Below are positions 7,729 to 53,449 of a stretch of 64,000 bases of DNA, in pieces (position 1 is the first letter of the stretch; every line of letters starts with the position of its first letter). The translations under genes were made by a program, and so were the position numbers. Origin of the DNA: an uncultured Bdellovibrionales bacterium (GTDB lineage Bacteria; Patescibacteriota; Minisyncoccia; Moranbacterales; UBA1568). The stretch is from NCBI GenBank assembly GCA_964543815.1, contig CAZIZG010000001.1, positions 116,265 to 180,264 of the forward strand, in the 5' to 3' direction. The notes under the pieces were generated by a model. The model saw nothing but the letters and a program-made list of their open reading frames with translations. It made no database searches and was not told the origin of the DNA.

Positions 7729-7732
7729 ATCG

Positions 7733-29228: not shown

Positions 29229-31484
29229 TCACTCTGGCGACAACCGAACTCCCGTCTCATTTGGAGCTGTTTCGGAAGATTTGGCTGTATCAATAAGCGC
29301 CCGGATACCGTTTGTATCCACCACCGGACGACGGCGTAATGCTTTAAATTTTTTTGGTTCTATATGTTTGGCCTGAGCCAAAGAAAGTGGGGCGTCTGTC
29401 GAGGCATATGCTTGATGGCGAACATCTCTTCGTTCGGATACACGAGACGGTCGGGCCGTCCTGCTTTGTTCATCTGGACGAGCCACTGGGGAAACTGTTT
29501 GCTTTCGCTCTATTTCATTGCGAGCCTTAGCAGTCGCCCGTTGATAATCCCGCAGACAGTCTTTACAGAAAGTTGGTCGACTTCCATCAGGTTTGAACGG
29601 CACTTCAATTTCCAGTCCACAGGTAGCACATACGGCCTGATAGAGTATTTTCTCTGGTACTAATGCTTCAGCATGGACCGCCTCCGTCTGCGCCTCCGCG
29701 TCAGACAAAACGGGTTCATGCTGTGATACTTCAAGAGCTTGATTCTTTTTTTCACCCTGCTCAAAGGCATCCAAATCTACCAACGACGCCTTCTTTGGTG
29801 CCAGCGGTGGTTCAAAAGCCGGCTTGGCAGCTGATGACACCACGCCTTTAAGCAAAATAGCCGCCTCATCCGCTGTGTAGATCTCAGGATTGGAGCCAGA
29901 GGGATCGGGGGTTACCGTATCTTTTGGTGCGGGAGTTGGTAAAGTGATTTTCGGAATCGCCGCATACTTCTGGGCCGAGGGCATCATTTTCTTTGGTGGC
30001 TGTGATGGTTGTGCTGAAACAACTGGAGCCGAGAGTGGCTTCTGAGCTGCTCTCCCCTCGCCAAACTGAGCGGTTGGTTGCGGCATCTTCGGTCGGGGTT
30101 GAGACTGGGATGGCACCCCCAAAGGACGCGACGTTTCTTTGGGTCGCACGGAGGCAACTGGTGGTGCGACTGTTTTCACCAAAGCTTGGCGCTCTTCGGC
30201 TGAGAGCATACCACTCCATCGCATAATTTTTTCTTCCACTTCTTCTTTTTTCGATGTATAGCGCTCCCGGGAAGAATTGATAATTTTTTCTTCATTTCCA
30301 GCATCTTCCAACTTGATAGGTGGCAAAGTTGTAGCTGAAAAGGCATCACCAGCAATACCATCAATCATGAGCTTGAGATAAATCTGGTACTTCGGCAAAT
30401 TGACGATATCATTCATCATGAATACCGGCTCAAACTCCTTTTCCAAAAACTCGGCGTCCATAGCCCCTACCCGGAACGAAACGATGCTACCAGCGTTTCC
30501 AAAAATAGCGTCACGCACCTTTTCATCAATCTGGGTCACGTACTGATTGGCCAGGATGAGGTTCAGGTGGTACTTACGCGCCTCAGAAAGAATATTAGCA
30601 AACGACTCCGTAGCAAAATTCTGAAACTCATCAACGTAAAGATAAAAATCCGCTCGAGTATCTTCTGGAATGTCTACTCGACCCATGGCAGCAAGTTGGA
30701 TTTTGGTAATCATCATAGCCCCAAGGAGAGCGCTATTGTCCTCACCGAGACGACCCTTGGAAAGGTTCATGATGAGGATCTTACGCTCATCCATAATCTT
30801 GCGCACATCAAAGGACGAGACGGTCTGACCCACAATATTTCTGATGAGAGCACTCGAAAGGAACTGCCCTACCTTGTTCTGAATCGGAGAAATAACCTCT
30901 TGAAGCACCCGAGGATCCCACTTGGAAAATTCGTCCACCCAAAAGGAACGAACCACTGGATCAGTGATTTTTTCTACTACCCGCTCCCGATAAGATTTAT
31001 CAACCAGGATACGAGTGACACCGAGAAGTGTGCTTCCCGGATATTCAAGCAGACCCAAAATAGCATTACGCAAAATATACTCCAGTCGCGGTCCCCAGGA
31101 ATCAGCCCAGATTTTTTTGAACACTCCCACCAAACCAGAGGCCACCAAGTGACGGTACTCCGGACTGACTTTTTCCATCACATTGAAAGCAATCGGGAAG
31201 TCTTGGTCAGCCGGATTAAAATAGATAACGTCATTAATACGATTTGACGGGATGGCCTTGATGAGTTTTTCAGCCGTATCACCGTGCGGATCAATAAAGG
31301 CGATACCATGACCCTTTTGGATATCCTGAATAGCCAGGTTTTCCAAAAGATTGGTCTTACCCATACCGGTTTTTCCAATCACATACATGTGTCGGCGACG
31401 ATCATCTTGCTTGATACCAAACACACGTTCCTGATTACGGAAGTTCGTCTTGGCAAAAAATGTGACGTCATTCTGTAAAGCCAT
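29229..31484 (-). CDS. TraG/TraD/VirD4-family (type IV coupling-protein-like) ATPase lacking TM anchor, with C-terminal CxxC...CxxC zinc ribbon
   Basis: Walker A VIGKTGMGKT at residues 34-43, Walker B FYLYVDEFQNF, then ARKYHLNLILANQYVTQI (VirD4/TrwB-like); Pro/Ala/Ser-rich linker; CATCGLEIEVPFKPDGSRPTFCKDC. Confidence 0.7.
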   Translation of the reverse strand: MALQNDVTFFAKTNFRNQERVFGIKQDDRRRHMYVIGKTGMGKTNLLENLAIQDIQKGHGIAFIDPHGDTAEKLIKAIPSNRINDVIYFNPADQDFPIAFNVMEKVSPEYRHLVASGLVGVFKKIWADSWGPRLEYILRNAILGLLEYPGSTLLGVTRILVDKSYRERVVEKITDPVVRSFWVDEFSKWDPRVLQEVISPIQNKVGQFLSSALIRNIVGQTVSSFDVRKIMDERKILIMNLSKGRLGEDNSALLGAMMITKIQLAAMGRVDIPEDTRADFYLYVDEFQNFATESFANILSEARKYHLNLILANQYVTQIDEKVRDAIFGNAGSIVSFRVGAMDAEFLEKEFEPVFMMNDIVNLPKYQIYLKLMIDGIAGDAFSATTLPPIKLEDAGNEEKIINSSRERYTSKKEEVEEKIMRWSGMLSAEERQALVKTVAPPVASVRPKETSRPLGVPSQSQPRPKMPQPTAQFGEGRAAQKPLSAPVVSAQPSQPPKKMMPSAQKYAAIPKITLPTPAPKDTVTPDPSGSNPEIYTADEAAILLKGVVSSAAKPAFEPPLAPKKASLVDLDAFEQGEKKNQALEVSQHEPVLSDAEAQTEAVHAEALVPEKILYQAVCATCGLEIEVPFKPDGSRPTFCKDCLRDYQRATAKARNEIERKQTVSPVARPDEQSRTARPSRVSERRDVRHQAYASTDAPLSLAQAKHIEPKKFKALRRRPVVDTNGIRALIDTAKSSETAPNETGVRLSPE

Positions 31485-31486
31485 AG

Positions 31487-32791
31487 TTATTCGAAATCTT
31501 GGATAGGGAGATTAGAGGGGGCACCACCACGCTTGGCCGAAACCCGAGTGAGCGACGGAGCCAATACCGCCATATCCGGAATATGGAATACTGTCGCTAA
31601 CTCTTCCGAACTAAAAAGAAATCGAGTACTCTGCGGATCAGTATCACGCGTAATATAACGACGAAACAGCCGTCGCTGTCGATAACGCAACCGCTCCTCG
31701 GTAAAAATATAGGAGGCGTATGTTTTGGACCCGTCCTCCGGTACCATGCTGTTCAAATTCTGATCATTAAATTGCTTGATACCACCAATAAAAGATGAGA
31801 CGCCAGTCTGCTTACTGAATCCTTCGCGACGACCAACGTAGACCATGCGCATACGTGTTTTATACATCTGTTTAGCCAAATTGGCCTGAAGTGCCTTGAG
31901 CACATCTTTCTCACCAGGCGAAAGACGAAATTCGAGCGGCTGCTCTTCCTTTTTTTCCGGTTTAGCACCAGCCGTATAGACCATCGGACCCCCGATGAGT
32001 CCCCGGCCAATATTAGAAACAAAATCCATAATATGCGCAAAGAACATCCCAAGAAATCCAGATTTCGCCTCCTTAACCCGACCCAAAAACTCATCAACTG
32101 TCTCCTTTCCCGTTGAATACCATTTCTCACTAATGGGAGTAATAATGTACTGAAGCCACAGGTGTTGCCCAGGACCGAGCTTGCCCATAGTTTCAATCAG
32201 GCCGGCAAGTGGATCAATCATTTTGCCAGTTACGGTCTCCTCGAAATTCCTGTATGTTTTAATCGGATAAAGGTCCGGTTTAAACAATTTGAAATCAACT
32301 CCCCATAAATCCCATTCTTTGTTAGGCACGGTCTTCGGTACGAGGTGTACATAATCCTCCACCTCAACTATTTCCACATTGGGATACTGCGCGTAGAAAT
32401 GAGCTTCAACCAGATTACGAAATCCTACCTGGGTACGAATGTACATATGAACCTGCCCCTCGATACTTACCAATTCCAAAGAAAAGGAGGTGGGAAATTC
32501 CCCTTTGATAAATTCTTCAGCAGCCGTCGGAGATTTGATAACTCCAGCAAATGCCGTGAAAATAGATTCCATAGGAAGCGGACTCGCTTCAATGTCACGT
32601 GGTGGAATAATTTCCAAAAGTACCCATTTCAGTCCGCCCGCAAAATGCCCACCGGCATGAAACATCCACAACAGTTTGAAAACAAAATAGAGCAGTGGTG
32701 GGAACAAAATAAACCACACGCTCATAACAGCAGAAAAAACACCTCCCATGACGGAGAAGAGTTCTTGAAAGTTTGGTAAAAGAGTGCCCAT
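31487..32791 (-). CDS. hypothetical membrane protein (2 N-terminal TM + about 370-aa soluble domain), adjacent upstream of the VirD4-like ATPase
   Basis: stop TAA 31487-31489 and downstream ATG 31482-31484 separated by 2 nt. Confidence 0.5.
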   Translation of the reverse strand: MGTLLPNFQELFSVMGGVFSAVMSVWFILFPPLLYFVFKLLWMFHAGGHFAGGLKWVLLEIIPPRDIEASPLPMESIFTAFAGVIKSPTAAEEFIKGEFPTSFSLELVSIEGQVHMYIRTQVGFRNLVEAHFYAQYPNVEIVEVEDYVHLVPKTVPNKEWDLWGVDFKLFKPDLYPIKTYRNFEETVTGKMIDPLAGLIETMGKLGPGQHLWLQYIITPISEKWYSTGKETVDEFLGRVKEAKSGFLGMFFAHIMDFVSNIGRGLIGGPMVYTAGAKPEKKEEQPLEFRLSPGEKDVLKALQANLAKQMYKTRMRMVYVGRREGFSKQTGVSSFIGGIKQFNDQNLNSMVPEDGSKTYASYIFTEERLRYRQRRLFRRYITRDTDPQSTRFLFSSEELATVFHIPDMAVLAPSLTRVSAKRGGAPSNLPIQDFE

Positions 32792-35743: not shown

Positions 35744-37474
35744 TTGATTATTGATTCTATGCCATCCTCCACCACTTTCTACCGCAAATATCGGCCACAG
35801 AAATTCTCTGACGTTATCGGCCAAAAACACATCGTTACTACTCTCGAAAACGCTCTCAAACTCGGCAAGGTTGGTCAGGCCTACCTCTTTACCGGTCCAC
35901 GTGGTACAGGCAAAACCACTCTCGCTCGACTCTTCGCCAAAGCCATCAACTGCGAGAACCGCAAAGGAGCCGAGGCCTGTGACAAATGCCGTCATTGCCT
36001 CCTCATGCACGAGGGACAGAGTTTCGATATCATTGAAATTGATGCTGCTTCCCATACTGGCGTCGACAATATCCGCGAACTACGGGAGACTGTCAATCTC
36101 CCCCCCAGTCTGGGCTCACATAAGGTCTATATCATCGACGAGGTACACATGCTCTCTATCGGCGCTTTCAATGCGCTCCTTAAGACACTTGAGGAACCAC
36201 CAGCTCACGTCGTTTTTATCCTGGCTACCACAGCCCTTCACAAGGTACCTGACACCATTGTTTCTCGCTGTCAGCGTTTCGACCTTACGCGCTTTCCTGT
36301 AAAGGATATCACTCGAAAGCTTACCTCTATCGCCAAAGAAGAAAAACTCAAAATTACGCCTGAGGCTCTCGCCATGATTGCTTTTTCCGCCGAAGGTGGC
36401 ATGCGTGATGCCGAGTCACTTCTCATGCAGGTTGCTTCCCTCGGACTCTCGCCCATCACCGAAGACATCATCATCGGCGCCCTCGGTACTACCAAGAAAC
36501 AAAACGTAACCACTCTCATTACATTTTTGGCTGATAACGATCTCTACGGGGCGCTTTCCTTTATTCGTGAAGTATCACAGAGTGGTGCTGAGTTATCACT
36601 CTACGCTTCACTCGTTCTTCATTTCTTACGTGATCTCCTTATCGTTAATACCAATGCTGAACGCGGCCTCCTCGTACTTGGCGAATTAACAGAAGAAGAA
36701 CGACGGAGCCTCACAACGCTCGCTCCTCGCTTCACGGCCGGACAAATCGTATTGATGCTCGAGCAATTCCAGATTGCTCAGAGCACAACCAAGAGCGCTG
36801 TCATAACGGAACTCCCCTTAGAGATTGCCGTCGTCAATATCCTGGCGCCCCGAGAGGTCGCGCCCACTCCAAGAGAACCGGGAACACCCACAGTCACCGC
36901 AACCAGCCACGAAAAAAAAGTAGTTCCAAAAATTAACCCCATGAAATCCAGTGATGCTGGTGCAAAGCAATTTCATAGGGCGAACCCTGACCAATCCAAT
37001 GAAGTTGGTCCGCCAGAGGCGGAATTTCACAGGGCAAGCCAAACTGAAATACCAAAAAAAGAATATACAAAAACAGCTACTGAAATAAATACTGATCAAA
37101 CAATCAAAGAAGAAGTAGCTGAGAAAACGGCTCGTTTTGACTTGTCTCACATCAAAGAGCACTGGCTCGCTATCCTCGATACCGCCAAGCGTCTCAACGC
37201 CTCACTCACCCTCGGACTCTCCACTGCCCGCCCCGTGGAAACGACTGGATCCACTATCGTTATCGCGGTCAAATATCCCTTTCACAAAGAGCGCCTCGAA
37301 GAAGCCGCCAATCAATTGACACTCGAAAAGGCCTTTGATACCATCTTAGGGGCCAAAATGAAGCTCGTTATTGTGCTCGATTCAGCCAAAAATGAAGCGG
37401 TAGCCCAGGAAGAAAATCCTCTCATCAGCCAGGCTTTGAGCATGCTCGGCGGCCGAGTGGTGAATGAAGCATAA
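35744..37474 (+). CDS. dnaX: DNA polymerase III subunit gamma/tau
   Basis: FYRKYRPQKFSDVIGQKHIVTTLENALKLGKVGQAYLFTGPRGTGKTTLARLFAKAINC; Zn module CENRKGAEACDKCRHC; true start may be Met at 35759; preceded by extended -10-like TGCTATACT. Confidence 0.9.
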   Translation: MIIDSMPSSTTFYRKYRPQKFSDVIGQKHIVTTLENALKLGKVGQAYLFTGPRGTGKTTLARLFAKAINCENRKGAEACDKCRHCLLMHEGQSFDIIEIDAASHTGVDNIRELRETVNLPPSLGSHKVYIIDEVHMLSIGAFNALLKTLEEPPAHVVFILATTALHKVPDTIVSRCQRFDLTRFPVKDITRKLTSIAKEEKLKITPEALAMIAFSAEGGMRDAESLLMQVASLGLSPITEDIIIGALGTTKKQNVTTLITFLADNDLYGALSFIREVSQSGAELSLYASLVLHFLRDLLIVNTNAERGLLVLGELTEEERRSLTTLAPRFTAGQIVLMLEQFQIAQSTTKSAVITELPLEIAVVNILAPREVAPTPREPGTPTVTATSHEKKVVPKINPMKSSDAGAKQFHRANPDQSNEVGPPEAEFHRASQTEIPKKEYTKTATEINTDQTIKEEVAEKTARFDLSHIKEHWLAILDTAKRLNASLTLGLSTARPVETTGSTIVIAVKYPFHKERLEEAANQLTLEKAFDTILGAKMKLVIVLDSAKNEAVAQEENPLISQALSMLGGRVVNEA

Positions 37475-37481
37475 CGAACAT

Positions 37482-37553
37482 TGGGGAGTAGCCAAGCGGT
37501 AAGGCAGGGGCCTTTGAAGCCTCCATGCGATGGTTCGATCCCATCCTCCCCAG
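37482..37553 (+). tRNA. tRNA-Gln (anticodon TTG); CCA not encoded
   Basis: TGGGGAG-TA-GCC-AAGCGGTAA-GGC-A-GGGGC-CTTTGAA-GCCTC-CATGC-GATGG-TTCGATC-CCATC-CTCCCCA-G; cloverleaf near-identical in plan to E. coli tRNA-Gln. Confidence 0.85.
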
Positions 37554-37559
37554 CAAATT

Positions 37560-38117
37560 ATGTTCACTATTCCGAAACAATACTCTTCCATCACTTTTAT
37601 TCAAGACACTTCTTGGCAGGGGGTTTTTGATACCTGGCGAGATTTAGAAGCCTGGCAAAATTCATGGAAACAACACTGGGAAGAAAGAGGATTTGACTCA
37701 TGGGATGAATGGCGAAAAGCATACATAGAACCGTATCATCCAGAGTCGCTCTCATGGGCATTGTACAAAATTACTGACCCGCTACAAGATGTACCACATT
37801 TTTACGGGACACCCACCAAGGGGTGGATCGAGAAAGTTTACAACGGGGAAACGACTCTACAACTGAAAGATCTTGTTACTCATCCAGTCATTACGAATAA
37901 TGAAAAAATTATAGACATCAAAAAAGACTTTCCTCCTGAGACAATGCTTACGGGTATCATTTTTGAGGATAAAATTGTCTTACTTGAAGGCATGCATCGA
38001 GCAAATGCTATCACTACATGGAATCCCAAAGACGCCTTTACTGGTACAATTACTATAGCTCTTGCTGAGTGGAAGCACCACTTGATAAAAATAGGCGGAA
38101 ACTACAAGTCTAAATAA
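37560..38117 (+). CDS. hypothetical protein (185 aa), first gene of the post-tRNA cassette
   Basis: start moved to MFTIPKQ so it does not overlap the tRNA; Trp/acid-rich N-terminus; no motif. Confidence 0.45.
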   Translation: MFTIPKQYSSITFIQDTSWQGVFDTWRDLEAWQNSWKQHWEERGFDSWDEWRKAYIEPYHPESLSWALYKITDPLQDVPHFYGTPTKGWIEKVYNGETTLQLKDLVTHPVITNNEKIIDIKKDFPPETMLTGIIFEDKIVLLEGMHRANAITTWNPKDAFTGTITIALAEWKHHLIKIGGNYKSK

Positions 38118-38151
38118 GTTCCAACTTCATCCCAAGCCTCAACACTATTTT

Positions 38152-38436
38152 ATGAAAGCAATGAAGGCTAGCGCGGTCATAAATCTACAGGACATCCCAA
38201 ATATTGGCCCGGCAATGATTGAGGATTTTAAAAAACTTGAAATTTACACGCCAGCCGATTTGAAAAAACAAGACGCCTTTGCGCTCTATCAAAAACTCTG
38301 TGCCCTAACTCACACTCGTCATGACCCCTGCGTCCTCGATACATTTATCGCTGCCGTTCAATTTATGAACGGCGCACCAGCTCATCCTTGGTGGCACTAC
38401 ACTGCCGAGCGCAAAAGAAACTACCCGACAATATAG
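38152..38436 (+). CDS. helix-hairpin-helix DNA-binding protein (Cdd1/TfoX-C-like)
   Basis: NLQDIPNIGPAMIEDFKKLEIYTPADLKKQDAFALYQKL. Confidence 0.55.
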   Translation: MKAMKASAVINLQDIPNIGPAMIEDFKKLEIYTPADLKKQDAFALYQKLCALTHTRHDPCVLDTFIAAVQFMNGAPAHPWWHYTAERKRNYPTI

Positions 38437-38485
38437 AAACTCCCCTTTCTTCCTCTAATCTCTTTATCCCATAACTTCAGTATCT

Positions 38486-38971
38486 ATGCTCGTCGAACTT
38501 TCAACCAATCAGATAAAATTTTCCAAAGAACTTCTCGGTGCAGAAACTGCCTGGCTCTGGGTCGGCTCTGGTTATAGTCCGCTTGATAATGACGATAACC
38601 GAGTAAAAGAAACTCGCGAACTCATGGAAAAATACTACCCTTACGTCCCCTATGGAATGTGGGTGGGAAATAAAGCTGGCAATGAAATGAAGCCACTTGA
38701 ACTCAGAGAAGAGGGATATACTCTCGATCTTTCCTGGTGGCCAGTTGGCGTTTACCGTATGAACCTTCACACTGGTGCTGGCATTGAATCACCTTTTGGT
38801 TCAAAACTGCATCCAGAAAAACGTGATCAGGAGTGCTCATGGTCACCACTTGAAACATTTCAGAATGAACTCAAGTCATTCCTTCACAAGGAAGAAAATG
38901 GCGCTGGATATTCCATTCGCTTCCTTATTCGTCCAGATCGTTCTGTGGAACCTTTTGGCGATTACAACTAA
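38486..38971 (+). CDS. hypothetical protein (161 aa)
   Basis: ORF in the operon-like cassette; no motif. Confidence 0.45.
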   Translation: MLVELSTNQIKFSKELLGAETAWLWVGSGYSPLDNDDNRVKETRELMEKYYPYVPYGMWVGNKAGNEMKPLELREEGYTLDLSWWPVGVYRMNLHTGAGIESPFGSKLHPEKRDQECSWSPLETFQNELKSFLHKEENGAGYSIRFLIRPDRSVEPFGDYN

Positions 38972-39003
38972 ACTTTCGCTTCACCCCGCAATCTTAGCCT
39001 TTT

Positions 39004-39879
39004 ATGGTAAATGTCTCAGTTATTACTACTCGATTACGAGATGAGATTAAGCAAAGTCATGCCCCTGTCACTGGCTATTTTATTGCCTGTGCACTCATAA
39101 CAGAGCATGCCATTTACATCGATCATAACTACGAGCACGAAGACTCATTGGTCTTTGAACATGCCGAACAAAGGGCCTTAGCCAAAGCCGTTAAAAACGA
39201 AGTATCGCCAAAAATTAAACAGGTTTTCATGTATGGGGAGGGAAAAGTGAAGAAGTTTAAGCATTATATTCCGTGTGCAGATTGCACTGATACACTCCAA
39301 CCCTACGTTGATTCAGGTACATCGATAACATTGTTGCCAACCCAAGAAACTAAGACTGAACTACATCTAGGCTTTAATGAAGTAAGGAATAGCTACACAT
39401 CGTACGAATACTCGAGTATTACAGATGCCACGAGACTTAAATACGAAACGTTGCTCAATGAAAAAGATCAGCGATTTATCTACGATCTTGTTGCGCTGGG
39501 AAAAGAAAGGGGGGCTACTTTTTTCTTAACTGGAAGCGCATCTCGACGAGGAGGATTCAGCAATCTCCTTCTTTCAAAGCTCAAGAAAACTTATGGTGAT
39601 TTAGATTTATTCTGCATGCTTTCAGATAAAGGGACGCTAAATGGTGTAATCGCATCAGTAGAGAGTCTTATTCAGACATACTATGGAGTCCTAAAAAAGG
39701 TAGTAAGACCTCTCCCCCCTTACCAGAATCGAAAAGACGTAGTCCTCACCAAGATTTACTATCACTTTGATTCTGAGACTGAGCCATTTGTTGACCTCAC
39801 ATTTAGCTTGGCATTAGATGGGTCATTTATCAGAAAAGAATACTTTGACCGAAACTGGTTTCATGAGCTAGCGTGGTAG
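39004..39879 (+). CDS. predicted zinc-dependent (CDA-fold) deaminase fused to a Pol-beta-type minimal nucleotidyltransferase
   Basis: N-terminal half: FEHAEQRAL (H-A-E) and YIPCADC (P-C-x-x-C) 36 residues apart; C-terminal half: FFLTGSASRRGGFSNLLLSKLKKTYGDLDLFCML (G[SG]...DxD). Confidence 0.5.
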   Translation: MVNVSVITTRLRDEIKQSHAPVTGYFIACALITEHAIYIDHNYEHEDSLVFEHAEQRALAKAVKNEVSPKIKQVFMYGEGKVKKFKHYIPCADCTDTLQPYVDSGTSITLLPTQETKTELHLGFNEVRNSYTSYEYSSITDATRLKYETLLNEKDQRFIYDLVALGKERGATFFLTGSASRRGGFSNLLLSKLKKTYGDLDLFCMLSDKGTLNGVIASVESLIQTYYGVLKKVVRPLPPYQNRKDVVLTKIYYHFDSETEPFVDLTFSLALDGSFIRKEYFDRNWFHELAW

Positions 39880-39940
39880 ACAGGGGTTATTCTCTCTTCA
39901 TCCCGCAATCACAGCCCCTAACCTCCTTGTAATCGATGTT

Positions 39941-40186
39941 ATGTCGAAAAAGACATCATTGCTCATCATCTGCATAACCTCCCTCCTCTGCTCGAGGATA
40001 TCGTTTGTATTCTTAAACGATCCTGAAGGCCCAAACCTCCTCATCGTTATCGGACTTGCCACTGTCCTCTCTCTTGTTTCTTGGACAATAGTCTCTCTTC
40101 TGCCCTGGGGCAATTCCAAAAAAGTGTCCGTAGCGATACTCATCCAAATACTCCTTGCCACTAGTTTCATCCTTCTCGGAAGATAG
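39941..40186 (+). CDS. small 3-TM membrane protein (81 aa)
   Basis: last gene of the cassette; hydrophobic. Confidence 0.4.
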   Translation: MSKKTSLLIICITSLLCSRISFVFLNDPEGPNLLIVIGLATVLSLVSWTIVSLLPWGNSKKVSVAILIQILLATSFILLGR

Positions 40187-40213
40187 AAAAACGCCGCACA
40201 GCTTGGTGCGACG
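40187..40213 (-). terminator. Rho-independent terminator for 40228..40596
   Basis: minus strand CGTCGCAC-caagct-GTGCGGCG + TTTTT. Confidence 0.6.
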
Positions 40214-40227
40214 TGAGGAGTGACCCT

Positions 40228-40596
40228 CTAGAGGTCATCGGGTGAGATGACCTGCGTGTGATTCAAGCAGGATCGCAAAAAGACCGTGGCGGCATCCTTT
40301 GGTTTCCTCGGGATATCAAAGACCCGTAACAGTGCTTCCCGGAGGAAGCGCGTCGCTCCTGGACTTCGTACGAACCAACGCTTCTCTGGATCCATTCCAG
40401 ACAGGACAGTGACGTTGTCATCGAACAGGCCAACGATTTTTTTCTTCGAATAGCCATTGTCCCGTGACATGGCGGCATGCTCGATGAAATCACTTCCCTC
40501 GTGACACTCCCGCACCGTTGGCAGGAAGTCTTGAGCAAAGGAACTGGTTGAAATACCAATCCACAGTATCAGTATACAGATACTCCAAACGCGCAT
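40228..40596 (-). CDS. secreted hypothetical protein (122 aa, signal peptide) in high-GC islet
   Basis: AAGGAGA upstream; N-terminus MRVWSICILILWIGISTSSFA-QD; GC-rich. Confidence 0.5.
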   Translation of the reverse strand: MRVWSICILILWIGISTSSFAQDFLPTVRECHEGSDFIEHAAMSRDNGYSKKKIVGLFDDNVTVLSGMDPEKRWFVRSPGATRFLREALLRVFDIPRKPKDAATVFLRSCLNHTQVISPDDL

Positions 40597-40701
40597 GACT
40601 GTCTCCTTGTCGGCACGAGAATTGGAGGAAGAGTCGGGTAGTTACCCTTGCCCATATCTTGTCTCGATTTTTTCCTTTTGTCAAAGAAAAATTCTAAGCT
40701 G

Positions 40702-41295
40702 ATGAGATATTTCTCTCTCAGAATGGTATACTGGATTGCAAGTAAAAGATACTCTATGACAACATACGTCGCCCTCCTCCGGGGCATCAACGTCGGAGGG
40801 AATAACAAAGTAGAGATGAAAAAACTGAGAGCCGTCTTTGAGACGCTCGGATTTTCAAACGTCACCACCTATATCAACTCCGGCAATATCATCTTTACTT
40901 CGGACAGAAAAAATACCAAGAGTCTCGTATCAGACATTGAAACCGCCATCCAGGAATCCTTCGGCTTTGCCGTGAGAGTAATCGTGCGTGATGAAAAAAA
41001 TATTCGGACGATTGAAAAAGCCATTCCGAAAGAGTGGTCAAACGACACCAAACAGCGGACGGATGTCCTCTTCCTCTGGGAGGAATATGCCAAAAAAAGC
41101 ACCCTCAAGCTCATCGTCACCAACCCTGACATAGACACTCTACTCTACACTGGAGGCGCTATTGTCTGGCACATGAGCGACCGGAAGCACTACAGCAAAA
41201 GTGGTCTGCGGAAATTTATCAGCACCGAGATTTACAAGCACATGACCGCTCGCAATGTGAATACCCTCCGCAAACTTACGACTCTTTTTCCTTAA
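40702..41295 (+). CDS. DUF1697 family protein
   Basis: MTTYVALLRGINVGGNNKVEMKKLRAVFETLGF is the family-typical N-terminus. Confidence 0.7.
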   Translation: MRYFSLRMVYWIASKRYSMTTYVALLRGINVGGNNKVEMKKLRAVFETLGFSNVTTYINSGNIIFTSDRKNTKSLVSDIETAIQESFGFAVRVIVRDEKNIRTIEKAIPKEWSNDTKQRTDVLFLWEEYAKKSTLKLIVTNPDIDTLLYTGGAIVWHMSDRKHYSKSGLRKFISTEIYKHMTARNVNTLRKLTTLFP

Positions 41296-41299
41296 ACGT

Positions 41300-41575
41300 A
41301 TGACAGAAATAAAGCGCGATTGGGATATTTTGACGGATGGAGAACGAAAACATGCCATCGATGAAATCATCGGATATTTTGCTACTGAAAGAAACGAGGA
41401 GATGGGTGTCATTGCGGCTAGCGAACTCCTCGATCTGTTTCTCCGAACTACTGGCGGCGCCGTCTACAACCACGCTCTCGATCATATCCGACCGCTCCTC
41501 GAAAAAAATCTCAACACCACTCTCCTCGATATTGATGTAACTCTCCGCAAAGAGATTATCAAGCAACTGTCCTAG
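41300..41575 (+). CDS. DUF2164 family protein
   Basis: 91 aa; IGYFATERNEEMGVIAASELLDLFL family-like. Confidence 0.5.
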   Translation: MTEIKRDWDILTDGERKHAIDEIIGYFATERNEEMGVIAASELLDLFLRTTGGAVYNHALDHIRPLLEKNLNTTLLDIDVTLRKEIIKQLS

Positions 41576-41614
41576 ACACAAAATTACGCCTTAATTTTCT
41601 CAGAAGAAAATACG

Positions 41615-42856
41615 CTATTTAAAAACGATAGAATTGCCAGCGACATACCCGGTGGTCCAGCAGAGCTGGAGACTATAGCCCCCGGATGGACGGTCAATAT
41701 TCAAAACATCACCAACAAAGTGCAGATTGGAAAACTTCCGCGAACGCATATGTTTCCAATCTACTTCTTCCAGGGCTACCCCACCCGAAGTAACAATAGC
41801 TTTATCAGCTCCGAGAAGCCCATCAACCGTCAAGCGGAAATCTTTTGTTTTCCTCGCCAAAGACAAGCGCTCATCACGGGTCACACTGTGTACTGGAGTA
41901 TCTGGATTGATACCAGAGAGACCAAGGAGTGTCGGGATAAGGAGTGGCGTGAGAAATCCATCCAAGCCATTCTTCGCCTGTTTGTTCTTATTCGCTTCAA
42001 AACACGTTTGAATATCATGATCAATTTCGCCAATATTTTTCTCAGGAAAAAAATCTATTGAAACGGGGACGGTACCGTACTGGAGGAACTCAGCGATACT
42101 GCGACTCATATTGAGTACGAGCGGACCTGAGAGTCCCACATGAGTAAATAAAAGTTTGCCCCGTTTGCTTTCTATCTTGCGGCCCTGCTGAAAGTAACTC
42201 AGTTTTACGTCCGGAAAACTCGCTCCAGAAAGCGCATGAGCCCAAGTCTCACGCACGGTGAGTGGCACCAGCGCCGGTCGTGGGGCCACAATCGTATGAC
42301 CAATCTTTTCAAGCCACCGAAAGCCATCCCCTGTTGACCCTGTCTCTGGCCGCGACTGACCACCCGTGGCAAGGATATATGAATGCGCTCGCATGATGCT
42401 CCCATTTTTCATCCGTACCCCACTTATATTGCTCCCTACCACCTCTAGACCCGCCACTTCCATCCCGGTAAGAATCGTCACATTTCCCTCTCGCATATAC
42501 GAAACTAGAGCATCCCAAACTGACTGGGCATTATCAGAAACGGGAAACACTCGCTTCTCCGCCTCTACTTTGGTCGGCATGCCCCTCATATGAAAAAAGT
42601 CGAGAGTGGACTGCACCCCAAACTGAGCCAGAGGTGAATAGAGAAACTTGGCAGCCGTTCCAAACTTTTGAAGAAACAGGTGCTCATCAAATTCAGCATT
42701 CGTGATGTTCGAACGCCCACCACCCGTGATGAGGAGCTTCTGGCCCAAAGACGTGTTTTTCTCCAAGAGCACCACTCGGGCGCCACACTCAGCCGCTCGG
42801 CCAGCCGCCATCATCCCGGCCGGCCCTCCTCCGATAACAATAACATCGTAGTCCAT
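41615..42856 (-). CDS. FAD-dependent flavoprotein, HI0933/BaiN (aminoacetone-oxidase-like) family
   Basis: MDYDVIVIGGGPAGMMAAGRAAECGARVVLLEKN...GGGRSNITN; 413 aa. Confidence 0.8.
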   Translation of the reverse strand: MDYDVIVIGGGPAGMMAAGRAAECGARVVLLEKNTSLGQKLLITGGGRSNITNAEFDEHLFLQKFGTAAKFLYSPLAQFGVQSTLDFFHMRGMPTKVEAEKRVFPVSDNAQSVWDALVSYMREGNVTILTGMEVAGLEVVGSNISGVRMKNGSIMRAHSYILATGGQSRPETGSTGDGFRWLEKIGHTIVAPRPALVPLTVRETWAHALSGASFPDVKLSYFQQGRKIESKRGKLLFTHVGLSGPLVLNMSRSIAEFLQYGTVPVSIDFFPEKNIGEIDHDIQTCFEANKNKQAKNGLDGFLTPLLIPTLLGLSGINPDTPVHSVTRDERLSLARKTKDFRLTVDGLLGADKAIVTSGGVALEEVDWKHMRSRKFSNLHFVGDVLNIDRPSGGYSLQLCWTTGYVAGNSIVFK

Positions 42857-42967
42857 ACTCTCATTGTACCAAGAAAAAGCATCATCACTCAGTTTTTGGT
42901 ATCTGTCAACAAAATTCCTTTTAAAAAACCGAAAAAAACACTATAATACGGGCATAATTCATCGCTT

Positions 42968-43531
42968 TTGACTATGACGATCCAACAATACTCGCTCGTT
43001 CTTTCGGTTCTCGTCCTACTCCTTGGATCAGCCACCCTGCTTTCTATCATCTTATTTTTTTCTTCCGCGGCCTGGCGAGAAAAGATACAAACTGTTGCCT
43101 ATGACACCTGGATGAAACTCATTGGCATTTTCGCTACTATCGCGACACTGGGTGCCCTCACCTATCAGTTTATCTATCTCACTCCTGTTTGCCTCGATTG
43201 TTGGTGGCAACGCATCTTCATGTTTCCGATAGAAATCATCGTTCTTGTCTCGCTTCTCACCAAGAACAGACAGAACCACTTCCTCACCTGGTTTATGGCG
43301 AGCATCGGCATCCTCTTTTCTCTTCATCACTACTCCGAGCACTTCGAACGCTATGTCATGGGAAATGCCACACTTGTTCCCTGCTCCCCCACCCCCAGCG
43401 AACCACTCTGCGGACTTGCACCAACTGTTACCTTTGGTTTCATCACTATCCCATTCATGGCCGTCATCGTCTTTGCTGCTCTCATCTGGCTCTCCTATCT
43501 TGCTTTTCATAAGTCTCGTCAACCCAAATAA
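42968..43531 (+). CDS. DsbB/BdbC-like thiol-disulfide oxidoreductase membrane protein (candidate)
   Basis: 4 TM; CLDCWW (CxxC) in first extracytoplasmic loop and a second Cys pair PCSPTPSEPLC. Confidence 0.5.
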   Translation: MTMTIQQYSLVLSVLVLLLGSATLLSIILFFSSAAWREKIQTVAYDTWMKLIGIFATIATLGALTYQFIYLTPVCLDCWWQRIFMFPIEIIVLVSLLTKNRQNHFLTWFMASIGILFSLHHYSEHFERYVMGNATLVPCSPTPSEPLCGLAPTVTFGFITIPFMAVIVFAALIWLSYLAFHKSRQPK

Positions 43532-43536
43532 GCGCT

Positions 43537-43854
43537 ATGCTTACCTTTAGTGAACGCGTCGTAAAAATCGCTCTCTCCATTCCCGAAGGAAGAGTCACTA
43601 CCTATGGCCGCATCGCAAGAGCAGCCGGCGGTGGCCCCATGGCCTCACAAAGTATTACGGCGATACTCGGAAAGGCCTGGGAACAAGGTGAAAAAAATAT
43701 TCCTTTTCACCGCATCGTGTATGCGGACGGGCACATCTGGGTAGACGAAAAACATCGGACAACTCGGCTCAAACTCTACAAAAAGGAGGGTATCGAACTC
43801 GACCAAAAAAACCGTATCCAGAACTTTCGTTCCATCCTTTGGGAATTAACATAA
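43537..43854 (+). CDS. MGMT-fold DNA-binding protein lacking the catalytic Cys (alkyltransferase-like, ATL)
   Basis: IPFHRIVYADG where O6-alkylguanine transferases have PCHRVV. Confidence 0.65.
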   Translation: MLTFSERVVKIALSIPEGRVTTYGRIARAAGGGPMASQSITAILGKAWEQGEKNIPFHRIVYADGHIWVDEKHRTTRLKLYKKEGIELDQKNRIQNFRSILWELT

Positions 43855-43859
43855 AAAAT

Positions 43860-44669
43860 ATGCACAAGCCATCGAGTTTTCGTGATTATCTCATCGCTAC
43901 CCTCATCGCTACAACCCTCTTTGTTTTTTTTGGGTTCTACCTCTTTATCCGCCACGGCTTTCTCTGGAGCACTCCCACCACCACAGATGCCCTTTTTCTC
44001 CCCAATAAAGCCTTGGCTTCTGTCGCCATGACACTGCTCGCTTTTACCTTTCTCATTGGTCCCATCGTACGTTATTTTGACCGCTATGATACCTGGCTCT
44101 CCTACCGCAAAGAAATTGGTATCCTCGCCGGATTTCTCGCCATCGTTCATGGACTTATTAGCTACTGTCTCCTGCCAATCAAATTTCCCCAAGCCTGGAT
44201 TGACTTTACTGCTACGGAATTTCTTGCCGGACTTGTCGGTGCCATTACTCTCGCCGTCCTCTTCATTCTCTCCTGGAAAAGCATCATTCTCCTCGTTACT
44301 GGTGGCCCCTGGTGGTTCCTTCAACGTTTTGGTCTCCGGCTTGCTATTATCGCCACCCTCATCCATGTCTACGTGATGAAGTGGTCAAGTTGGACGACTT
44401 GGTTTACTCAGGGCAACACCCAGCCAACAGCTGAGCTTATTCGTCCAGAACTCCCAGCACTCGAACTCCTTGTCACTCTCTTTATCACTTGGGTAGTTGT
44501 GATTCGATTCTACGAAACAATTTTTCTATTTCGAGACTGCGGTTTCAAAGCCAAAGAAATCTGCATGGACCTCCAGATTAAGGCGCGAGGGCGACACTTT
44601 TTTATATGGAGTTTTTTGGTTTATCTTGTCCTTACCCTCATTATTCTTGTCCGCTATCTCATCCCCTGA
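43860..44669 (+). CDS. ferric-reductase-like transmembrane domain protein (MsrQ/YedZ-like heme-binding core)
   Basis: 6 TM with His pairs in helices (IVHGLISY, LIHVYVMKW). Confidence 0.45.
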   Translation: MHKPSSFRDYLIATLIATTLFVFFGFYLFIRHGFLWSTPTTTDALFLPNKALASVAMTLLAFTFLIGPIVRYFDRYDTWLSYRKEIGILAGFLAIVHGLISYCLLPIKFPQAWIDFTATEFLAGLVGAITLAVLFILSWKSIILLVTGGPWWFLQRFGLRLAIIATLIHVYVMKWSSWTTWFTQGNTQPTAELIRPELPALELLVTLFITWVVVIRFYETIFLFRDCGFKAKEICMDLQIKARGRHFFIWSFLVYLVLTLIILVRYLIP

Positions 44670-44680
44670 TTGGTACATCT

Positions 44681-45304
44681 ATGAAAAAAACGATTATCTT
44701 TGATCTTGATGGAACACTGGTTGATATTGAGCCAGTTTTTTTCCGTATCTTCAATAATCTTGCTAGAGAGTTTGGCTTCGCCCCCCTAAGAGAGGATGAA
44801 ATTCCGTATCTCAAACAGTTTCATCTCAAAGACCTGGTTTGGCAACGACTCGGGTGGCATGTCATCCTGCTTCCGTTTATTCTTCATCGTGGCCGGGAAA
44901 CATATCATTCGCTTGTTCCAGAAATATCTCTTTTTTCTGGTACTACCAATACGCTTTCCGCCCTCAAATCCAAAGGTTACCGTATTGGTATCGTTTCATC
45001 CAGTCGTAGAGATACTATCGAGGCTATCGTCAAACATTACGCTCTTCCTGTCGATTTCATGTATCATGGACAACTGTTCAATAAAGCACGCTCTCTCAAA
45101 ACCGTCCTCTCAAATGAACACCTTGATGTCTCAGAAACACTCTACGTTGGCGATGAAGTTCGCGACATCGAGGCCTGTCACAAGATTAACCTTGATATCA
45201 TCGCTGTCTCCTGGGGTCTTAATAGTAAGGATTCCCTCAAGAACACGCGTGCTCTAACCGTCGATACCCAAGCAGAACTACTCGCTGCCATCATCGCCGC
45301 CTAA
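44681..45304 (+). CDS. HAD-IA family hydrolase (phosphatase)
   Basis: MKKTIIFDLDGTLVD motif I; GIVSSS motif II; VGDEVRDIEA motif IV. Confidence 0.8.
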   Translation: MKKTIIFDLDGTLVDIEPVFFRIFNNLAREFGFAPLREDEIPYLKQFHLKDLVWQRLGWHVILLPFILHRGRETYHSLVPEISLFSGTTNTLSALKSKGYRIGIVSSSRRDTIEAIVKHYALPVDFMYHGQLFNKARSLKTVLSNEHLDVSETLYVGDEVRDIEACHKINLDIIAVSWGLNSKDSLKNTRALTVDTQAELLAAIIAA

Positions 45305-45311
45305 ACTTAAA

Positions 45312-45338
45312 ACACCCTTCTCGCGAGGGTGTTTTGTT
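45312..45338. terminator. bidirectional terminator ACACCCT-tctcgcg-AGGGTGT
   Basis: flanked by A-run and T-run between convergent genes. Confidence 0.6.
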
Positions 45339-45356
45339 ATTTATCTGTCTGATTTT

Positions 45357-46940
45357 TTAGAGATCGTTTCCGGTGTAGGAAAGATTGAAGCTCTTGTTGA
45401 TAAGTGGAAAATCAGGCACCATGTCCCGCCCAATAACATACGGGAAAAGCTGCCAGTTCAAAAACGAGGGGTCGCGCACTTTGACACGAGAAATAGTTCC
45501 TGTGGCGTCAGTCATCACGAAGTAAGTAATATCTCCACGCCATCCCTCGACCGTTCCTACCGCATGACGATTGGCTAGCAAGGCTGGCATAGCAATACGG
45601 CACTCACTTGTTTCATGAATGAGGAGCGCCAGCACCTGATTGAGCAAGCGAAATGACTGAGTCACCTCACGTGCTCGTACCCGAAAGCGAGCATAGACAT
45701 CACCAGACTTCTCAGTCATCACCCCGAACTGAACCATATCATAGGCCGCATATGGGAAATCCGCCCGAGTATCAATTTCCAGTCCACAGGCCCGAGCAGC
45801 AATACCGACCGCGCCATGATCAGCCGCAACGGCCGAATCGAGAGTCCCTGTCCCTTTAAGACGGTTAAGCATCGAATCACTTTCTTTCGTTACTGCTACA
45901 ACCTCCATATAGTCCTTCTCTAGAAGTTCCAAATCATCATGTAGTTCTTTGACAAGAGCCGTTTCAATATCACGGGTCACACCCCCATAAGCAACGACGC
46001 CACGCAAAAATCGGCTGCCCGTCAAGCGTTCGTTCCATTGCATGACGCGTTCACGAAGCCGGGATCCGTGGCTGCCGCCAAAGGAAAATCCGGTATCCAG
46101 CATAATAAATGCTAAGTCATTGAAATGATTAGCGAGCCGCTCCAACTCACCATAAACTACCCGAAGCAGTTTAGCACGCGTTGGCACCGAAACATCAGCC
46201 ATATCTTCAACCGCCTGAGCAAAAGCCAAAGCATGATGATACGAACTGTCCCCCGAAATACGCTCTGCAAGGGTCAGTTTCTTATCCAAAGCCAAGTGCT
46301 CAAAAAGTTTTTCAGTCCCCTTGTGTACATAACCCAAACGAGGCTCGAGACGCAAAATTTCCTCACCCAAAACACTAAATCGAAAGTGGCCCGGTTCAAT
46401 GATACCGGCATGGACTGGTCCTACTGGAATTTCATAGACGCCTTCACCTTCGTACTTCTGAAATGTCGGATACGCTTTATGCTCTGGTGGTGTCACCACA
46501 GCGTTCCAAGCAAATTCCTTGCGAAGCGGATAAGTATTATCAGGATAATTTTCTTGGTGGAGATTGATACGGTTGGCCTGTGGATGACCAGCTGGAGTCA
46601 AACCGAAGAAAGTCTTGATTTCTTGTTCGTACACCGCAAACTCATGATCAATTGGGGTTAGCGAAGGGAAAGTCTCACTTCCACCCAAAGAAAGAAAAGG
46701 GATAAGAAAAATATTATCTTTCGGTACACCAAAAACATAATATACCCGAAAGGCACCCTGTTCGGCACGCTCATCGGTCGCCGTAACGGTTTTGAGTGGC
46801 AAAGCATGATCATGTTTCAGTGATATCACTAACGATTTCAAATCATGCTCGGATACTTGAAAAAGAAAGCTTCGTCCCTCTTGTTTCAGCTGATAGTTCT
46901 CAAGTCCGAACCGAGTAATCAGGGTATTCTGATCAGTCAT
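45357..46940 (-). CDS. fused NuoC-NuoD / HycE-like large subunit with all four NiFe-ligand cysteines substituted (Ehr-type)
   Basis: GPVHAGIIEPGHFRF, LGYVHKGTEKL (NuoD/HycE blocks); L1 position reads ERISGDSSYHH (RxCGxCxxxH expected); L2 position reads DPSFLN (DPCxxC expected). Confidence 0.75.
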   Translation of the reverse strand: MTDQNTLITRFGLENYQLKQEGRSFLFQVSEHDLKSLVISLKHDHALPLKTVTATDERAEQGAFRVYYVFGVPKDNIFLIPFLSLGGSETFPSLTPIDHEFAVYEQEIKTFFGLTPAGHPQANRINLHQENYPDNTYPLRKEFAWNAVVTPPEHKAYPTFQKYEGEGVYEIPVGPVHAGIIEPGHFRFSVLGEEILRLEPRLGYVHKGTEKLFEHLALDKKLTLAERISGDSSYHHALAFAQAVEDMADVSVPTRAKLLRVVYGELERLANHFNDLAFIMLDTGFSFGGSHGSRLRERVMQWNERLTGSRFLRGVVAYGGVTRDIETALVKELHDDLELLEKDYMEVVAVTKESDSMLNRLKGTGTLDSAVAADHGAVGIAARACGLEIDTRADFPYAAYDMVQFGVMTEKSGDVYARFRVRAREVTQSFRLLNQVLALLIHETSECRIAMPALLANRHAVGTVEGWRGDITYFVMTDATGTISRVKVRDPSFLNWQLFPYVIGRDMVPDFPLINKSFNLSYTGNDL

Positions 46941-46949
46941 AAGCGTACG

Positions 46950-49074: not shown

Positions 49075-49084
49075 AACAATCGCA

Positions 49085-50050: not shown

Positions 50051-50060
50051 ACGTAAAAAA

Positions 50061-52121: not shown

Positions 52122-52124
52122 AGA

Positions 52125-52664: not shown

Positions 52665-52775
52665 ACAAACGGCATGGTCACTTCGTGACCAGAATTACAG
52701 AAAAACACAGCCGAAACCCTCTTTTCGGAAACACTCCCATTCTACTCTTTTCGAACTTTTTGTCCAGTCCTAGCC

Positions 52776-53393: not shown

Positions 53394-53449
53394 CCATGAA
53401 TTACCTCTTCAGTATACCCGAGGCACAAAGAATCAGGAAGCCCTGCTCA

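Follow-up and report, generated by a model that had tools for sequence, protein, structure and literature searches.

A probable array of single-gene cassettes bounded by a short repeated element downstream of tRNA-Gln(UUG) in a Moranbacteria-like Patescibacterium

We consider here a 2.6-kb segment (37555-40186 in the numbering of the window, the whole 64,000-nt stretch of contig CAZIZG010000001.1 under study) in which five small genes, P1 to P5, follow immediately upon the gene for tRNA-Gln(UUG) and end at a convergent gene, P6, that is conserved in relatives. Comparison with the equivalent loci of related genomes suggests that these genes probably are separate cassettes whose edges are marked by a short repeated boundary element. 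The window belongs to a genome of the Candidate Phyla Radiation (CPR)/Patescibacteria, and the host is a Moranbacteria-like Patescibacterium; the homologues of P1 and P3 are labelled Moranbacteria, Parcubacteria or Patescibacteria in databases. The locus contains the following features, ORF standing for open reading frame and HMM for hidden Markov model.

37316-37344, + strand: candidate sigma-70-like promoter (TTGACA, 17 nt, TACCAT, with TG) inside the 3' end of dnaX, from a consensus scan only
37482-37553/4, + strand: tRNA-Gln(UUG), called by ARAGORN and by Rfam (61.5 bits), the left anchor of the variable segment
37560-38117, + strand: P1, 185 amino acids (aa)
38118-38144, + strand: copy 1 of the boundary repeat, GTTCCAACTTCATCCCAAGCCTCAACA, immediately downstream of the P1 stop codon; top window match of an independent HMM (E=0.016)
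38152-38436, + strand: P2, 94 aa
38462-38482, + strand: degenerate boundary repeat, probable copy 2, CTTTATCCCATAACTTCAGTA, sharing the core CTTYAYCCC-N7-YAGYM
38486-38971, + strand: P3, 161 aa
38979-38999, + strand: degenerate boundary repeat, probable copy 3, CTTCACCCCGCAATCTTAGCC, which matches the pattern and is identical to copy 4 at 18 of 21 bases
39004-39879, + strand: P4, 291 aa
39896-39916, + strand: degenerate boundary repeat, probable copy 4, CTTCATCCCGCAATCACAGCC, which matches the pattern
39898-40170, - strand: antisense ORF over P5, an alternative call; its counterpart is open in the related locus L097 (12108-12383)
39941-40186, + strand: P5, 81 aa
40191-40214, - strand: intrinsic terminator of P6, the right boundary, where homology with relatives restarts
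40228-40596, - strand: P6, 122 aa, 51.5% GC, convergent; conserved flank outside the variable segment

The tRNA-Gln gene is the only tRNA gene that ARAGORN and Rfam find in the entire 64 kb. Its 3' end reads ...CTCCCCA-G-CAAATT-ATG, so that the CCA is not encoded, and the ORF of P1 starts 6 nt past the discriminator base; the spacers between the five ORFs, all of which lie on the + strand, measure 34, 49, 32 and 61 nt. The coordinates thus match those of the original prediction, a reading of the DNA letters without database searches, which had also described the stretch as AT-rich and as closed by a convergent high-GC gene with a terminator of its own. Both descriptions stand: the GC content of 37556-40227 is 42.6%, as compared to 46.7% (sd 1.7) in windows of the same size, and is the minimum across the 64 kb, and P6, the N-terminus of which is signal-peptide-like, is just such a gene. 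The GC content of third codon positions is 0.38-0.39 in P1, P3 and P4, as compared to 0.50-0.60 in dnaX, P6 and the genes for DUF1697 and FAD-oxidoreductase. The candidate promoter within dnaX may serve tRNA-Gln and, via read-through, the downstream genes. No recombinase or integrase domain was found among the ORFs of 1-28.6 kb or the public gene calls of ~27.5-47.5 kb, and searches of the window with a 24-mer and a 16-mer, allowing up to 3 mismatches, gave no second copy of the tRNA-Gln 3' end, as had been noted before; in relatives, repeats of this end do exist. A repeat search of 37400-46000 returned short, chance-like repeats only, the core of the spacer element being below its 10-nt exact seed. 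Exact copies of P4 are present on 17 public contigs (up to 276 kb, from several metagenomes), and the local gene order is identical in all of them; ERZ17987536, SRR6837569, SRR6837577 and SRR6837583 are among the samples containing the species.

Is this segment part of the ancestral chromosome? A protein scan of species-representative genomes with dnaX returned distant phyla only (identity of 38% or less), and the junctions of relatives were retrieved by a degenerate tRNA-Gln(UUG) pattern in metagenome contigs, which yielded seven contigs; L104, L009, L093 and the like are working labels for the contigs and loci of relatives compared with the window. In all seven, dnaX lies directly upstream of tRNA-Gln. 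Five of them extend well past the tRNA, and their dnaX is given as 38-73% or 41-79% identical to that of the window; the N-terminal half of dnaX is 72-79% identical in L101-L104, and a short C-terminal fragment in L107 is 78% identical. The arrangements beyond the tRNA are listed below, with identities to the window in brackets.

Window: tRNA-Gln, then P1-P5, then P6, DUF1697, DUF2164 and FAD-oxidoreductase
L104: six unrelated co-directional ORFs (NT5C 5'-nucleotidase, a PNPOx-like protein and four orphans), then P6 (54%), DUF1697 (81%) and DUF2164 (85%)
L107: a non-coding stretch of ~250 nt, followed by P6 (58%), by three further genes (one of them DHH) and by FAD-oxidoreductase (79%) with a syntenic run
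L103 and L105: ~0.8 kb (with a hemerythrin-like ORF in L103), then FAD-oxidoreductase

Nucleotide homology with the relatives ends at the final base of tRNA-Gln and restarts at the A-run and hairpin of the P6 terminator, homologues of P6 (54-58% identity) occupying the matching position in both L104 and L107. Since homology breaks at precisely these two points, the DNA specific to the window is 37555-40186 and comprises exactly five ORFs; and since relatives with the same flanks carry other cargo or almost none, with sharp homology breaks, the P1-P5 block is accessory DNA at a tRNA 3' flank, as the original prediction had proposed. The five genes are not a conserved syntenic core block in all relatives: the content of the site differs from lineage to lineage. 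One relative, L107, also has an 86-aa ORF (380-640; MKGYIYLL...GSTPNLERRLKEHN) between dnaX and tRNA-Gln, which is GIY-YIG-like by eye and is seen in this relative only.

The next point concerns the unity of the five genes, which had been described as an operon-like cassette. The P4 family comprises 9 clusters among 5.8 billion proteins, with homologues in L009 (72% identity) and in L010, L011 and L012 (41-44%), and in none of these loci are P1, P2, P3 or P5 nearby. The homologues of P1 (42 clusters) are found between a ClpP-like gene and a convergent PD-(D/E)XK gene in L093, downstream of dnaX-tRNA-Gln and followed by a 65-aa gene and rplL in L095/L096 and L108, and in the order dnaX-tRNA-Gln-pyrophosphatase-P1-HAD in L109. 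Those of P3 (47 clusters) lie in another variable region, behind ftsX-tRNA-Gln(CUG), in L097, between genes for a glycosyltransferase and RtcB in L099, and next to a PD-(D/E)XK gene in L111. At the loci of P1 (L093, L095, L108, L109), P3 (L097, L099, L111) and P4 (L009-L012) the other cargo genes of the window are absent, L097 excepted, where a P5-like ORF lies 1.7 kb downstream of the P3 homologue; this is the sole co-occurrence. Judged by these neighbourhoods, P1-P5 are not one operon.

What the families share is their position relative to tRNA genes. According to tRNA scans of the fetched loci, P1 follows tRNA-Gln(UUG) on the same strand in five genomes, and P3 and P4 have upstream tRNAs as well.

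P1, distance to tRNA-Gln(UUG): 5 nt (window), 0.6 kb (L109), 0.9 kb (L095), 2.5 kb (L108), 5.6 kb (L093)
P4, distance to the upstream tRNA: 1.4 kb from tRNA-Gln(UUG) in the window, 0.23 kb from tRNA-Gln(CUG) in L009, 0.25 kb from tRNA-Asp in L011, 2.2 kb from tRNA-Asp in L010
P3, distance to the upstream tRNA: 0.9 kb from tRNA-Gln(UUG) in the window, 4.1 kb from tRNA-Gln(CUG) in L097

With the density of tRNA genes in these genomes taken as roughly one per 20 kb (an estimate), the location of P4 within 2.2 kb of a tRNA in all four assessable loci is unlikely to be due to chance. The cargo at equivalent sites includes NT5C nucleotidase, NUDIX, pyrophosphatase and DHH proteins, that is, nucleotide housekeeping functions.

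The edges of the cargo genes are marked by a sequence of their own. A blastn alignment of window positions 37539-38135 with L109 1457-2054 (84.5% identity) spans the last 16 nt of the tRNA, the whole of P1 and 18 nt past the P1 stop codon, the outer DNA on both sides being unrelated, and a 30-nt stretch 3' of the pyrophosphatase gene of L109 matches the stretch 3' of P1. Reading of the 3' flanks of cargo genes gives a consensus of ~28 nt, GTTCCAACTTCGTCCCAGAGCCTCAGCA, which begins 0-2 nt past the stop codon. Genes with this boundary element at their 3' side are P1 (in the window, in L109 and in L093), the pyrophosphatase gene of L109 and P3 of L097; an nhmmer search added instances after the ClpP-like gene of L093, after the NUDIX gene of L102 and after the final cargo gene in L104, immediately ahead of the P6 terminator. 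P1 of L093 is bounded by the element on both sides. In the resulting alignment (A8), seven gene 3' ends from five unrelated families and five genomes share the element, while their flanks are unrelated; in the L097 island, copies in a more advanced state of decay stand behind the 250-aa, NUDIX and 265-aa genes. In 1.17 Mb of non-CPR control loci, the nhmmer model of the element had no match better than E=13, and in viral contigs the element pattern had seven matches, all of them inside coding sequence and at chance level by estimate.

Within the window, copy 1 can be regarded as established on comparative grounds, the independent HMM having been built solely from six element instances in other genomes. 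The core CTTYAYCCC-N7-YAGYM is found in all four spacers (with N6 in the copy between P1 and P2), and CTTYAYCCC occurs five times in 128 kb (64 kb, both strands), four of these occurrences falling within the 176 nt of the spacers. Because this core pattern was found post hoc, copies 2-4 are considered only probable decayed copies of the element. Derivation of the element from a decayed tRNA-Gln 3' end is no more than an idea: the 17 of 22 bases that can be aligned are not above the level of shuffled sequences (p ~0.18).

Two comparisons suggest that genes have moved at such sites recently. The flanking PD-(D/E)XK (Cas4-like) proteins of L093 and L111 (compared at L093 10559-10590 and L111 604-650) are 97% identical (369 of 379 residues), and the cassette beside this gene is P1 in L093 and P3 in L111, which is a cassette swap at the strain level. 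Furthermore, the P1 proteins of the window and L109 are 83% identical, although the identity in the C-terminal region of dnaX is 35%, whereas in L095 and L108, at a similar dnaX distance (33%), P1 is 51-56% identical; in both the window and L109, P1 abuts a tRNA-Gln 3' end, be it real or decayed. The swap and the mismatch between P1 and dnaX identities point to the exchange of single genes.

The relatives also carry repeats of the tRNA end. In L107, the tRNA is followed by a terminator (a 15-bp hairpin and a T-run), a conserved non-coding stretch, a tRNA-end repeat that is a near-perfect copy of the last 25 nt of the tRNA, and the P6 terminator, in this order. A module of this kind, with a strong terminator hairpin, ~120 nt of conserved sequence and a pseudo copy of the tRNA end, is seen after tRNA-Gln genes of both types (UUG and CUG) at the following positions.

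L107, 704-898: post-tRNA-Gln module
L102, 1999-2177: post-tRNA-Gln module
L097, 5905-6150: post-tRNA-Gln module
L109, 1284-1479: post-tRNA-Gln module
L009, 9857-10085: post-tRNA-Gln module

No Rfam family corresponds to the conserved module, which might represent a small RNA or else an integrated element of miniature size. Similar tRNA pseudo-ends precede, by 5-9 nt, the ATG of three genes: the NUDIX gene of L102, the P4 homologue of L009 and P1 of L109. At L009 10001-10090, the 30-residue N-terminal extension of the public 322-aa protein P0002 (...SEASSSISLPQLF) is a translated tRNA-Gln pseudo-end, and the true start of this protein is probably the ATG at 10091. The window has neither post-tRNA terminator nor conserved stretch nor pseudo-end; its P1 abuts the real tRNA end via an AAATT-ATG junction identical to the one that follows the pseudo-end of L109. 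A deletion between two tRNA-end direct repeats would produce the arrangement of the window and would place the array under read-through from the tRNA promoter.

In L093, the ORF of a large serine recombinase (4348-5817) overlaps the last 13 nt of tRNA-Gln(UUG). It belongs to an integrated element (4348-9964) that also encodes a RepSA/REP_ORF2-like Rep protein, DUF2726 and the ClpP-like protein and that ends at a copy of the boundary element just ahead of the P1 homologue. Since a recombinase and a Rep protein are located at tRNA-Gln, this gene is a genuine integration target in the clade.

As to the proteins, the functions of all five were deduced from folds and motifs only, and scans of P1-P6 against NCBIfam, PADLOC and PHROGs gave nothing useful beyond Cdd1 and cytidine deaminase. 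P1 represents an orphan family of Patescibacteria with an invariant E-G-x-H-R motif. Its C-terminal half weakly resembles the ParB/sulfiredoxin (Srx) fold: it superposes on sulfiredoxin, KorB, the N-terminal domain of pNOB8 ParB, SerK, PadC, SbnI and BrxU, and the E-G-x-H-R motif is placed where these proteins bear a GxxR-type nucleotide-binding box; P1 is probably a nucleoside triphosphate-binding protein of the ParB/Srx type. P2 is a Cdd1 helix-hairpin-helix protein, as had been recognised from the sequence (PF11731, E=4e-32, 110.6 bits vs a cut-off of 25.5, model positions 3-86 of 86), and probably a small DNA binder. P3 represents a narrow orphan family, the full-length members of which are 57-77% identical; a profile search retrieved 21 representatives among 1.84 billion proteins, the distant ones without a Pfam domain, and searches of Pfam and PDB gave no link to a known family. 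Assignments of P3 to DUF6735 (7 of 26 members, best E=0.013) and to Imm33 (2 of 26, E=0.12) were rejected as too weak, and PDB sequence and profile searches with P1 and P3 returned matches at chance level only (USP15, COMMD10, PKC iota). P5, with three hydrophobic segments in 81 aa, is predicted to be a small membrane protein and probably is one. Public gene callers report the antisense ORF (as 39898-40143) instead of P5 in two contigs and neither ORF in the others; the + strand product is 47% identical to an ORF of L097, with the common stretch FxFxxDPEGPNLLIV, and the + strand reading is the better-conserved frame, the shadow ORF remaining open because the third codon positions of both frames coincide.

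P4, the predicted model of which has a confidence score (AlphaFold2 pLDDT) of 93.8, is a fusion of a tetrameric-type cytidine deaminase (CDA; residues 1 to ~130) with a minimal nucleotidyltransferase (NTase) of the Pol-beta fold (~150-291), in agreement with the initial description of a deaminase-like/NTase fusion. The N-terminal half matches PF00383 (E=1e-6) and has the C/H-A-E and PCxxC zinc motifs on a deaminase fold; it retains the sugar-binding Asn/Glu and the stacking aromatic residue of free-cytidine deaminases and is of the free-nucleoside CDD/CDA type, closest to nucleoside deaminases and not of the polymorphic-toxin type. Against the NCBIfam model cyt_deam_tetra (TIGR01354) P4 scores 26.1 bits, far under the cut-off of 113.65, and hence is not an orthologue of the housekeeping Cdd. 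For canonical CDD, the motif is defined as PCxxCR, with an arginine (PMC3239186); in the P4 family, T, A, C or S takes the place of this arginine. Unlike the tetrameric CDAs of B. subtilis, B. anthracis and human, and blasticidin-S deaminase, P4 has His, not Cys, as the first zinc ligand, does not conserve the arginine and carries the C-terminal NTase. The latter has the NTase fold, with the G[GS] turn, the DxD pair and the third carboxylate of the superfamily. As compared to other Pol-beta NTases (the head of CCA-adding enzymes, LinB/ANT, and MNT of HEPN-MNT), P4 matches no Pfam NTase model, has a long spacing (27 residues) between G-S and D-x-D, and has neither a HEPN partner nor a tRNA-binding body domain nor an antibiotic-binding C-terminal domain. 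Polymorphic-toxin deaminases form the C-terminal part of a delivery protein and have a conserved immunity gene beside them, whereas the deaminase of P4 is N-terminal and its neighbours differ in every genome. Both sets of catalytic motifs look intact, and the fusion is among the rarest architectures in the protein search. Most likely, P4 would deaminate a small molecule of the cytosine nucleoside type, and the NTase would add a nucleotide-dependent second step in salvage or detoxification, a role that fits the NT5C, NUDIX, pyrophosphatase and DHH cargo at equivalent sites; our best guess is that P4 is bifunctional and that its substrate is a cytosine nucleoside, a cytosine nucleotide or a nucleoside antibiotic.

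Taken together, the sharp homology breaks, the scattered distribution of the five families, the recurring boundary element and the cassette swap make it rather likely that 37555-40186 is a lineage-specific array of four to five single-gene cassettes, all in one orientation and with no recognisable promoters of their own, set at the 3' end of tRNA-Gln(UUG). In this scenario, the boundary element would be a recombination site, used by a recombinase encoded elsewhere to bring in, exchange or remove individual genes next to tRNA-Gln; the array would be transcribed by read-through from the tRNA-Gln promoter, the strong post-tRNA terminator of the relatives being missing from the window, and the cargo proteins would act independently. 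We put forward, tentatively and as a possibility that we do not consider likely, the broader idea of an undescribed integron-like gene-capture system in Patescibacteria of the Moranbacteria group: tRNA-Gln would be its anchor, the unstructured ~28-nt element, borne by each cassette at its 3' end, would be the site through which single genes enter, pass between strains and species and are lost, the recombinase would be encoded elsewhere (possibly the serine recombinase of L093), the window would be one array read from the tRNA promoter, and P4 would be a new bifunctional nucleoside-modifying enzyme.

Several observations weigh against the cassette array. There is no recombinase in the window and none that is tied to the element. 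Copies 2-4 were recognised post hoc and are not detected by the independent HMM, and an ungapped position weight matrix reaches an equal score at one site within an unrelated gene (30704, - strand). The element does not form a hairpin, the four spacers and the copy of L109 folding no better than shuffled sequences (z from -0.7 to +0.9), and its likeness to the tRNA 3' end (17 of 22 bases, p ~0.18) is non-significant. In the distant L095 and L108, P1 is close to dnaX-tRNA-Gln without the element, so in these genomes P1 may have been resident for long instead of being a mobile cassette. The array is identical in all contigs of the window's own species, that is, no turnover is seen within the species; and the functions of P1-P5 are deduced from folds and motifs only.

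Could the locus have arisen without any dedicated mobility, from old lineage-specific genes through differential loss and illegitimate recombination in a plastic zone from tRNA-Gln to the FAD-oxidoreductase gene, with the element being an expression or RNA-processing signal, e.g. a cleavage or stability site in transcripts initiated at the tRNA promoter? The position of P1 downstream of dnaX-tRNA-Gln in four lineages (the window, L109, L095/L096 and L108) fits vertical inheritance; no recombinase was found in the window; the element has no secondary structure and occupies the gap from one stop codon to the following start, a place at which a signal for translation or processing might operate; and a genome poor in Shine-Dalgarno (SD) sequences, as judged from the presence of an SD-like sequence upstream of only 4 of 36 well-supported window genes, makes unusual upstream signals plausible, translation initiation in the host seeming to be largely SD-independent. 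However, none of the other ~60 genes of the window has the element, it is also found behind genes that lack a downstream partner or face a convergent gene (P1 in L093, the last gene of L104, P3 in L097), the identity of P1 between the window and L109 is much at odds with their dnaX distance when set against the other P1 copies, and strains with a 97% identical flank bear different cassettes. We regard differential loss as a rather unlikely explanation. Still less probable is the module that the original prediction had favoured, in which a DNA binder, a deaminase-NTase and a small membrane effector would act together as one accessory toxin or anti-phage system. Its genes are, indeed, co-directional, tightly spaced and low in GC at a tRNA flank, the closest homologue of P4 (72%, L009) is located beside an island with type I restriction-modification and AAA15/RloB genes, and ParB/Srx, NTase and deaminase domains occur in known defence systems; yet the five families are together in no other genome examined, PADLOC-DB v2 gave zero matches at E<=1 for P1-P6 and PHROGs nothing significant, no relatives of P1, P3 or P4 were found in scans of viral contigs, P4 keeps the sugar-binding and stacking residues of free-cytidine deaminases, and the neighbouring cargo in relatives is of the housekeeping type, all of which renders such a module improbable. 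Finally, P4 might be tied functionally to the tRNA, through editing or remodelling of the 3' end (C-to-U conversion plus nucleotide addition), repair, or a toxin activity that targets tRNA: its homologues lie 0.2-2.2 kb downstream of tRNA-Gln or tRNA-Asp in each of the four assessable genomes, and the neighbouring tRNA has no encoded CCA. This seems highly improbable, given that unrelated cargo is equally tRNA-adjacent, so that the position reflects the insertion site and not the function, that P4 has no RNA-binding body or tail domains, and that its deaminase is nearest to nucleoside deaminases. Of the initial description, then, the accessory island is supported, while the single functional operon and the toxin/defence module are not.

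The cassette array can be compared with several known systems. As in tRNA-associated islands, insertion is exactly at the tRNA 3' end, the composition is deviant and the presence of the DNA varies among relatives, four of which (L107, L102, L109 and L009) bear tRNA-end repeats, and the L093 recombinase abuts the tRNA; unlike such islands, the window has neither integrase nor tRNA-end repeat, the unit of variation is a single small gene, and a separate element of ~28 nt marks the edges of the cargo. With integron arrays and clusters of attC sites lacking integron-integrases (CALINs) the locus agrees in layout: behind a fixed anchor lie what appear to be single-gene cassettes in one orientation, with no promoters that can be recognised as theirs, a recurring site close after each gene, shuffling between genomes and unrelated products, whereas no IntI was found in the stretches of the window scanned, the anchor is a tRNA gene rather than attI, and the site, of 21-28 nt, is unstructured as compared to the imperfect palindrome of 55-140 nt that is attC, recombination at this site being only inferred. 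The pdif modules of Acinetobacter plasmids consist of genes flanked by XerC/D sites of 28 bp. The likeness consists in the small modules, the boundary site of ~28 bp and movement without a recombinase of their own; the element described here seems to differ in having no XerC-spacer-XerD symmetry or resemblance to dif, in the direct orientation of all copies and in its chromosomal location beside a tRNA gene. The locus behaves as a tRNA-associated genomic islet, is laid out as an integron array and fails defining tests of both; it would seem to be an accretion of mobile DNA at a tRNA flank, unusual for its single-gene units and dedicated ~28-nt boundary element.

The wider window offers several further observations. 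Other genes in it encode DnaX, a sigma factor, GtrA and a VirD4-like protein, and the scarcity of SD-like sequences was rejected as a special trait of the cassettes, the whole window being SD-poor.

3484-3850, - strand: class A RNase P RNA, 108.5 bits, just above the gathering score of 100
29229-32791, - strand: a homologue of TrwB/VirD4-like coupling proteins (751 aa) and a DUF8128 protein, adjoining the sigma-factor gene
45357-53400, - strand: a module resembling complex I or group-4 hydrogenases, with fused 30-kDa/49-kDa, Proton_antipo_M and NADHdh subunits

DUF8128 occupies the equivalent position in L108, and a VirD4-like ORF (by eye) is found near tRNA-Gln in L106; because of this same placement, the VirD4-like/DUF8128 pair seem to be core genes and not a mobile element. 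The complex-I-/hydrogenase-like module is unusual metabolic equipment for a small CPR genome. In L095 (10.5-10.9 kb) and L108 (10.5-13.1 kb), rplL-rplJ lie 0.3-2.6 kb past the P1 homologue, and in the window rplL is at 55.7 kb, ~18 kb beyond the P1 region; since the two are close in L095 and L108, a large block that includes the hydrogenase-like module separates P1 and rplL in the window (38-55.6 kb).

What would such an array mean? The repeated boundary element and the cassette-like turnover go beyond the original account of the locus, and it is comparative sequence evidence that suggests them. Should the element be no more than a signal for expression, the locus is a plasticity zone of the ordinary kind, populated by orphan genes. 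CPR bacteria/Patescibacteria have tiny genomes, and their routes of gene gain and exchange are little understood; a tRNA-anchored cassette system, if true, would offer them a compact means of gene flux, the integron idea realised with different parts, and searches for the element could delimit accessory genes across thousands of fragmentary metagenome-assembled genomes. The set of cargo genes, with nucleotidase, NUDIX, pyrophosphatase, DHH phosphoesterase and deaminase-NTase, points to the scavenging and sanitation of nucleotides as strain-variable traits, and such variation fits organisms that are unable to make nucleotides.

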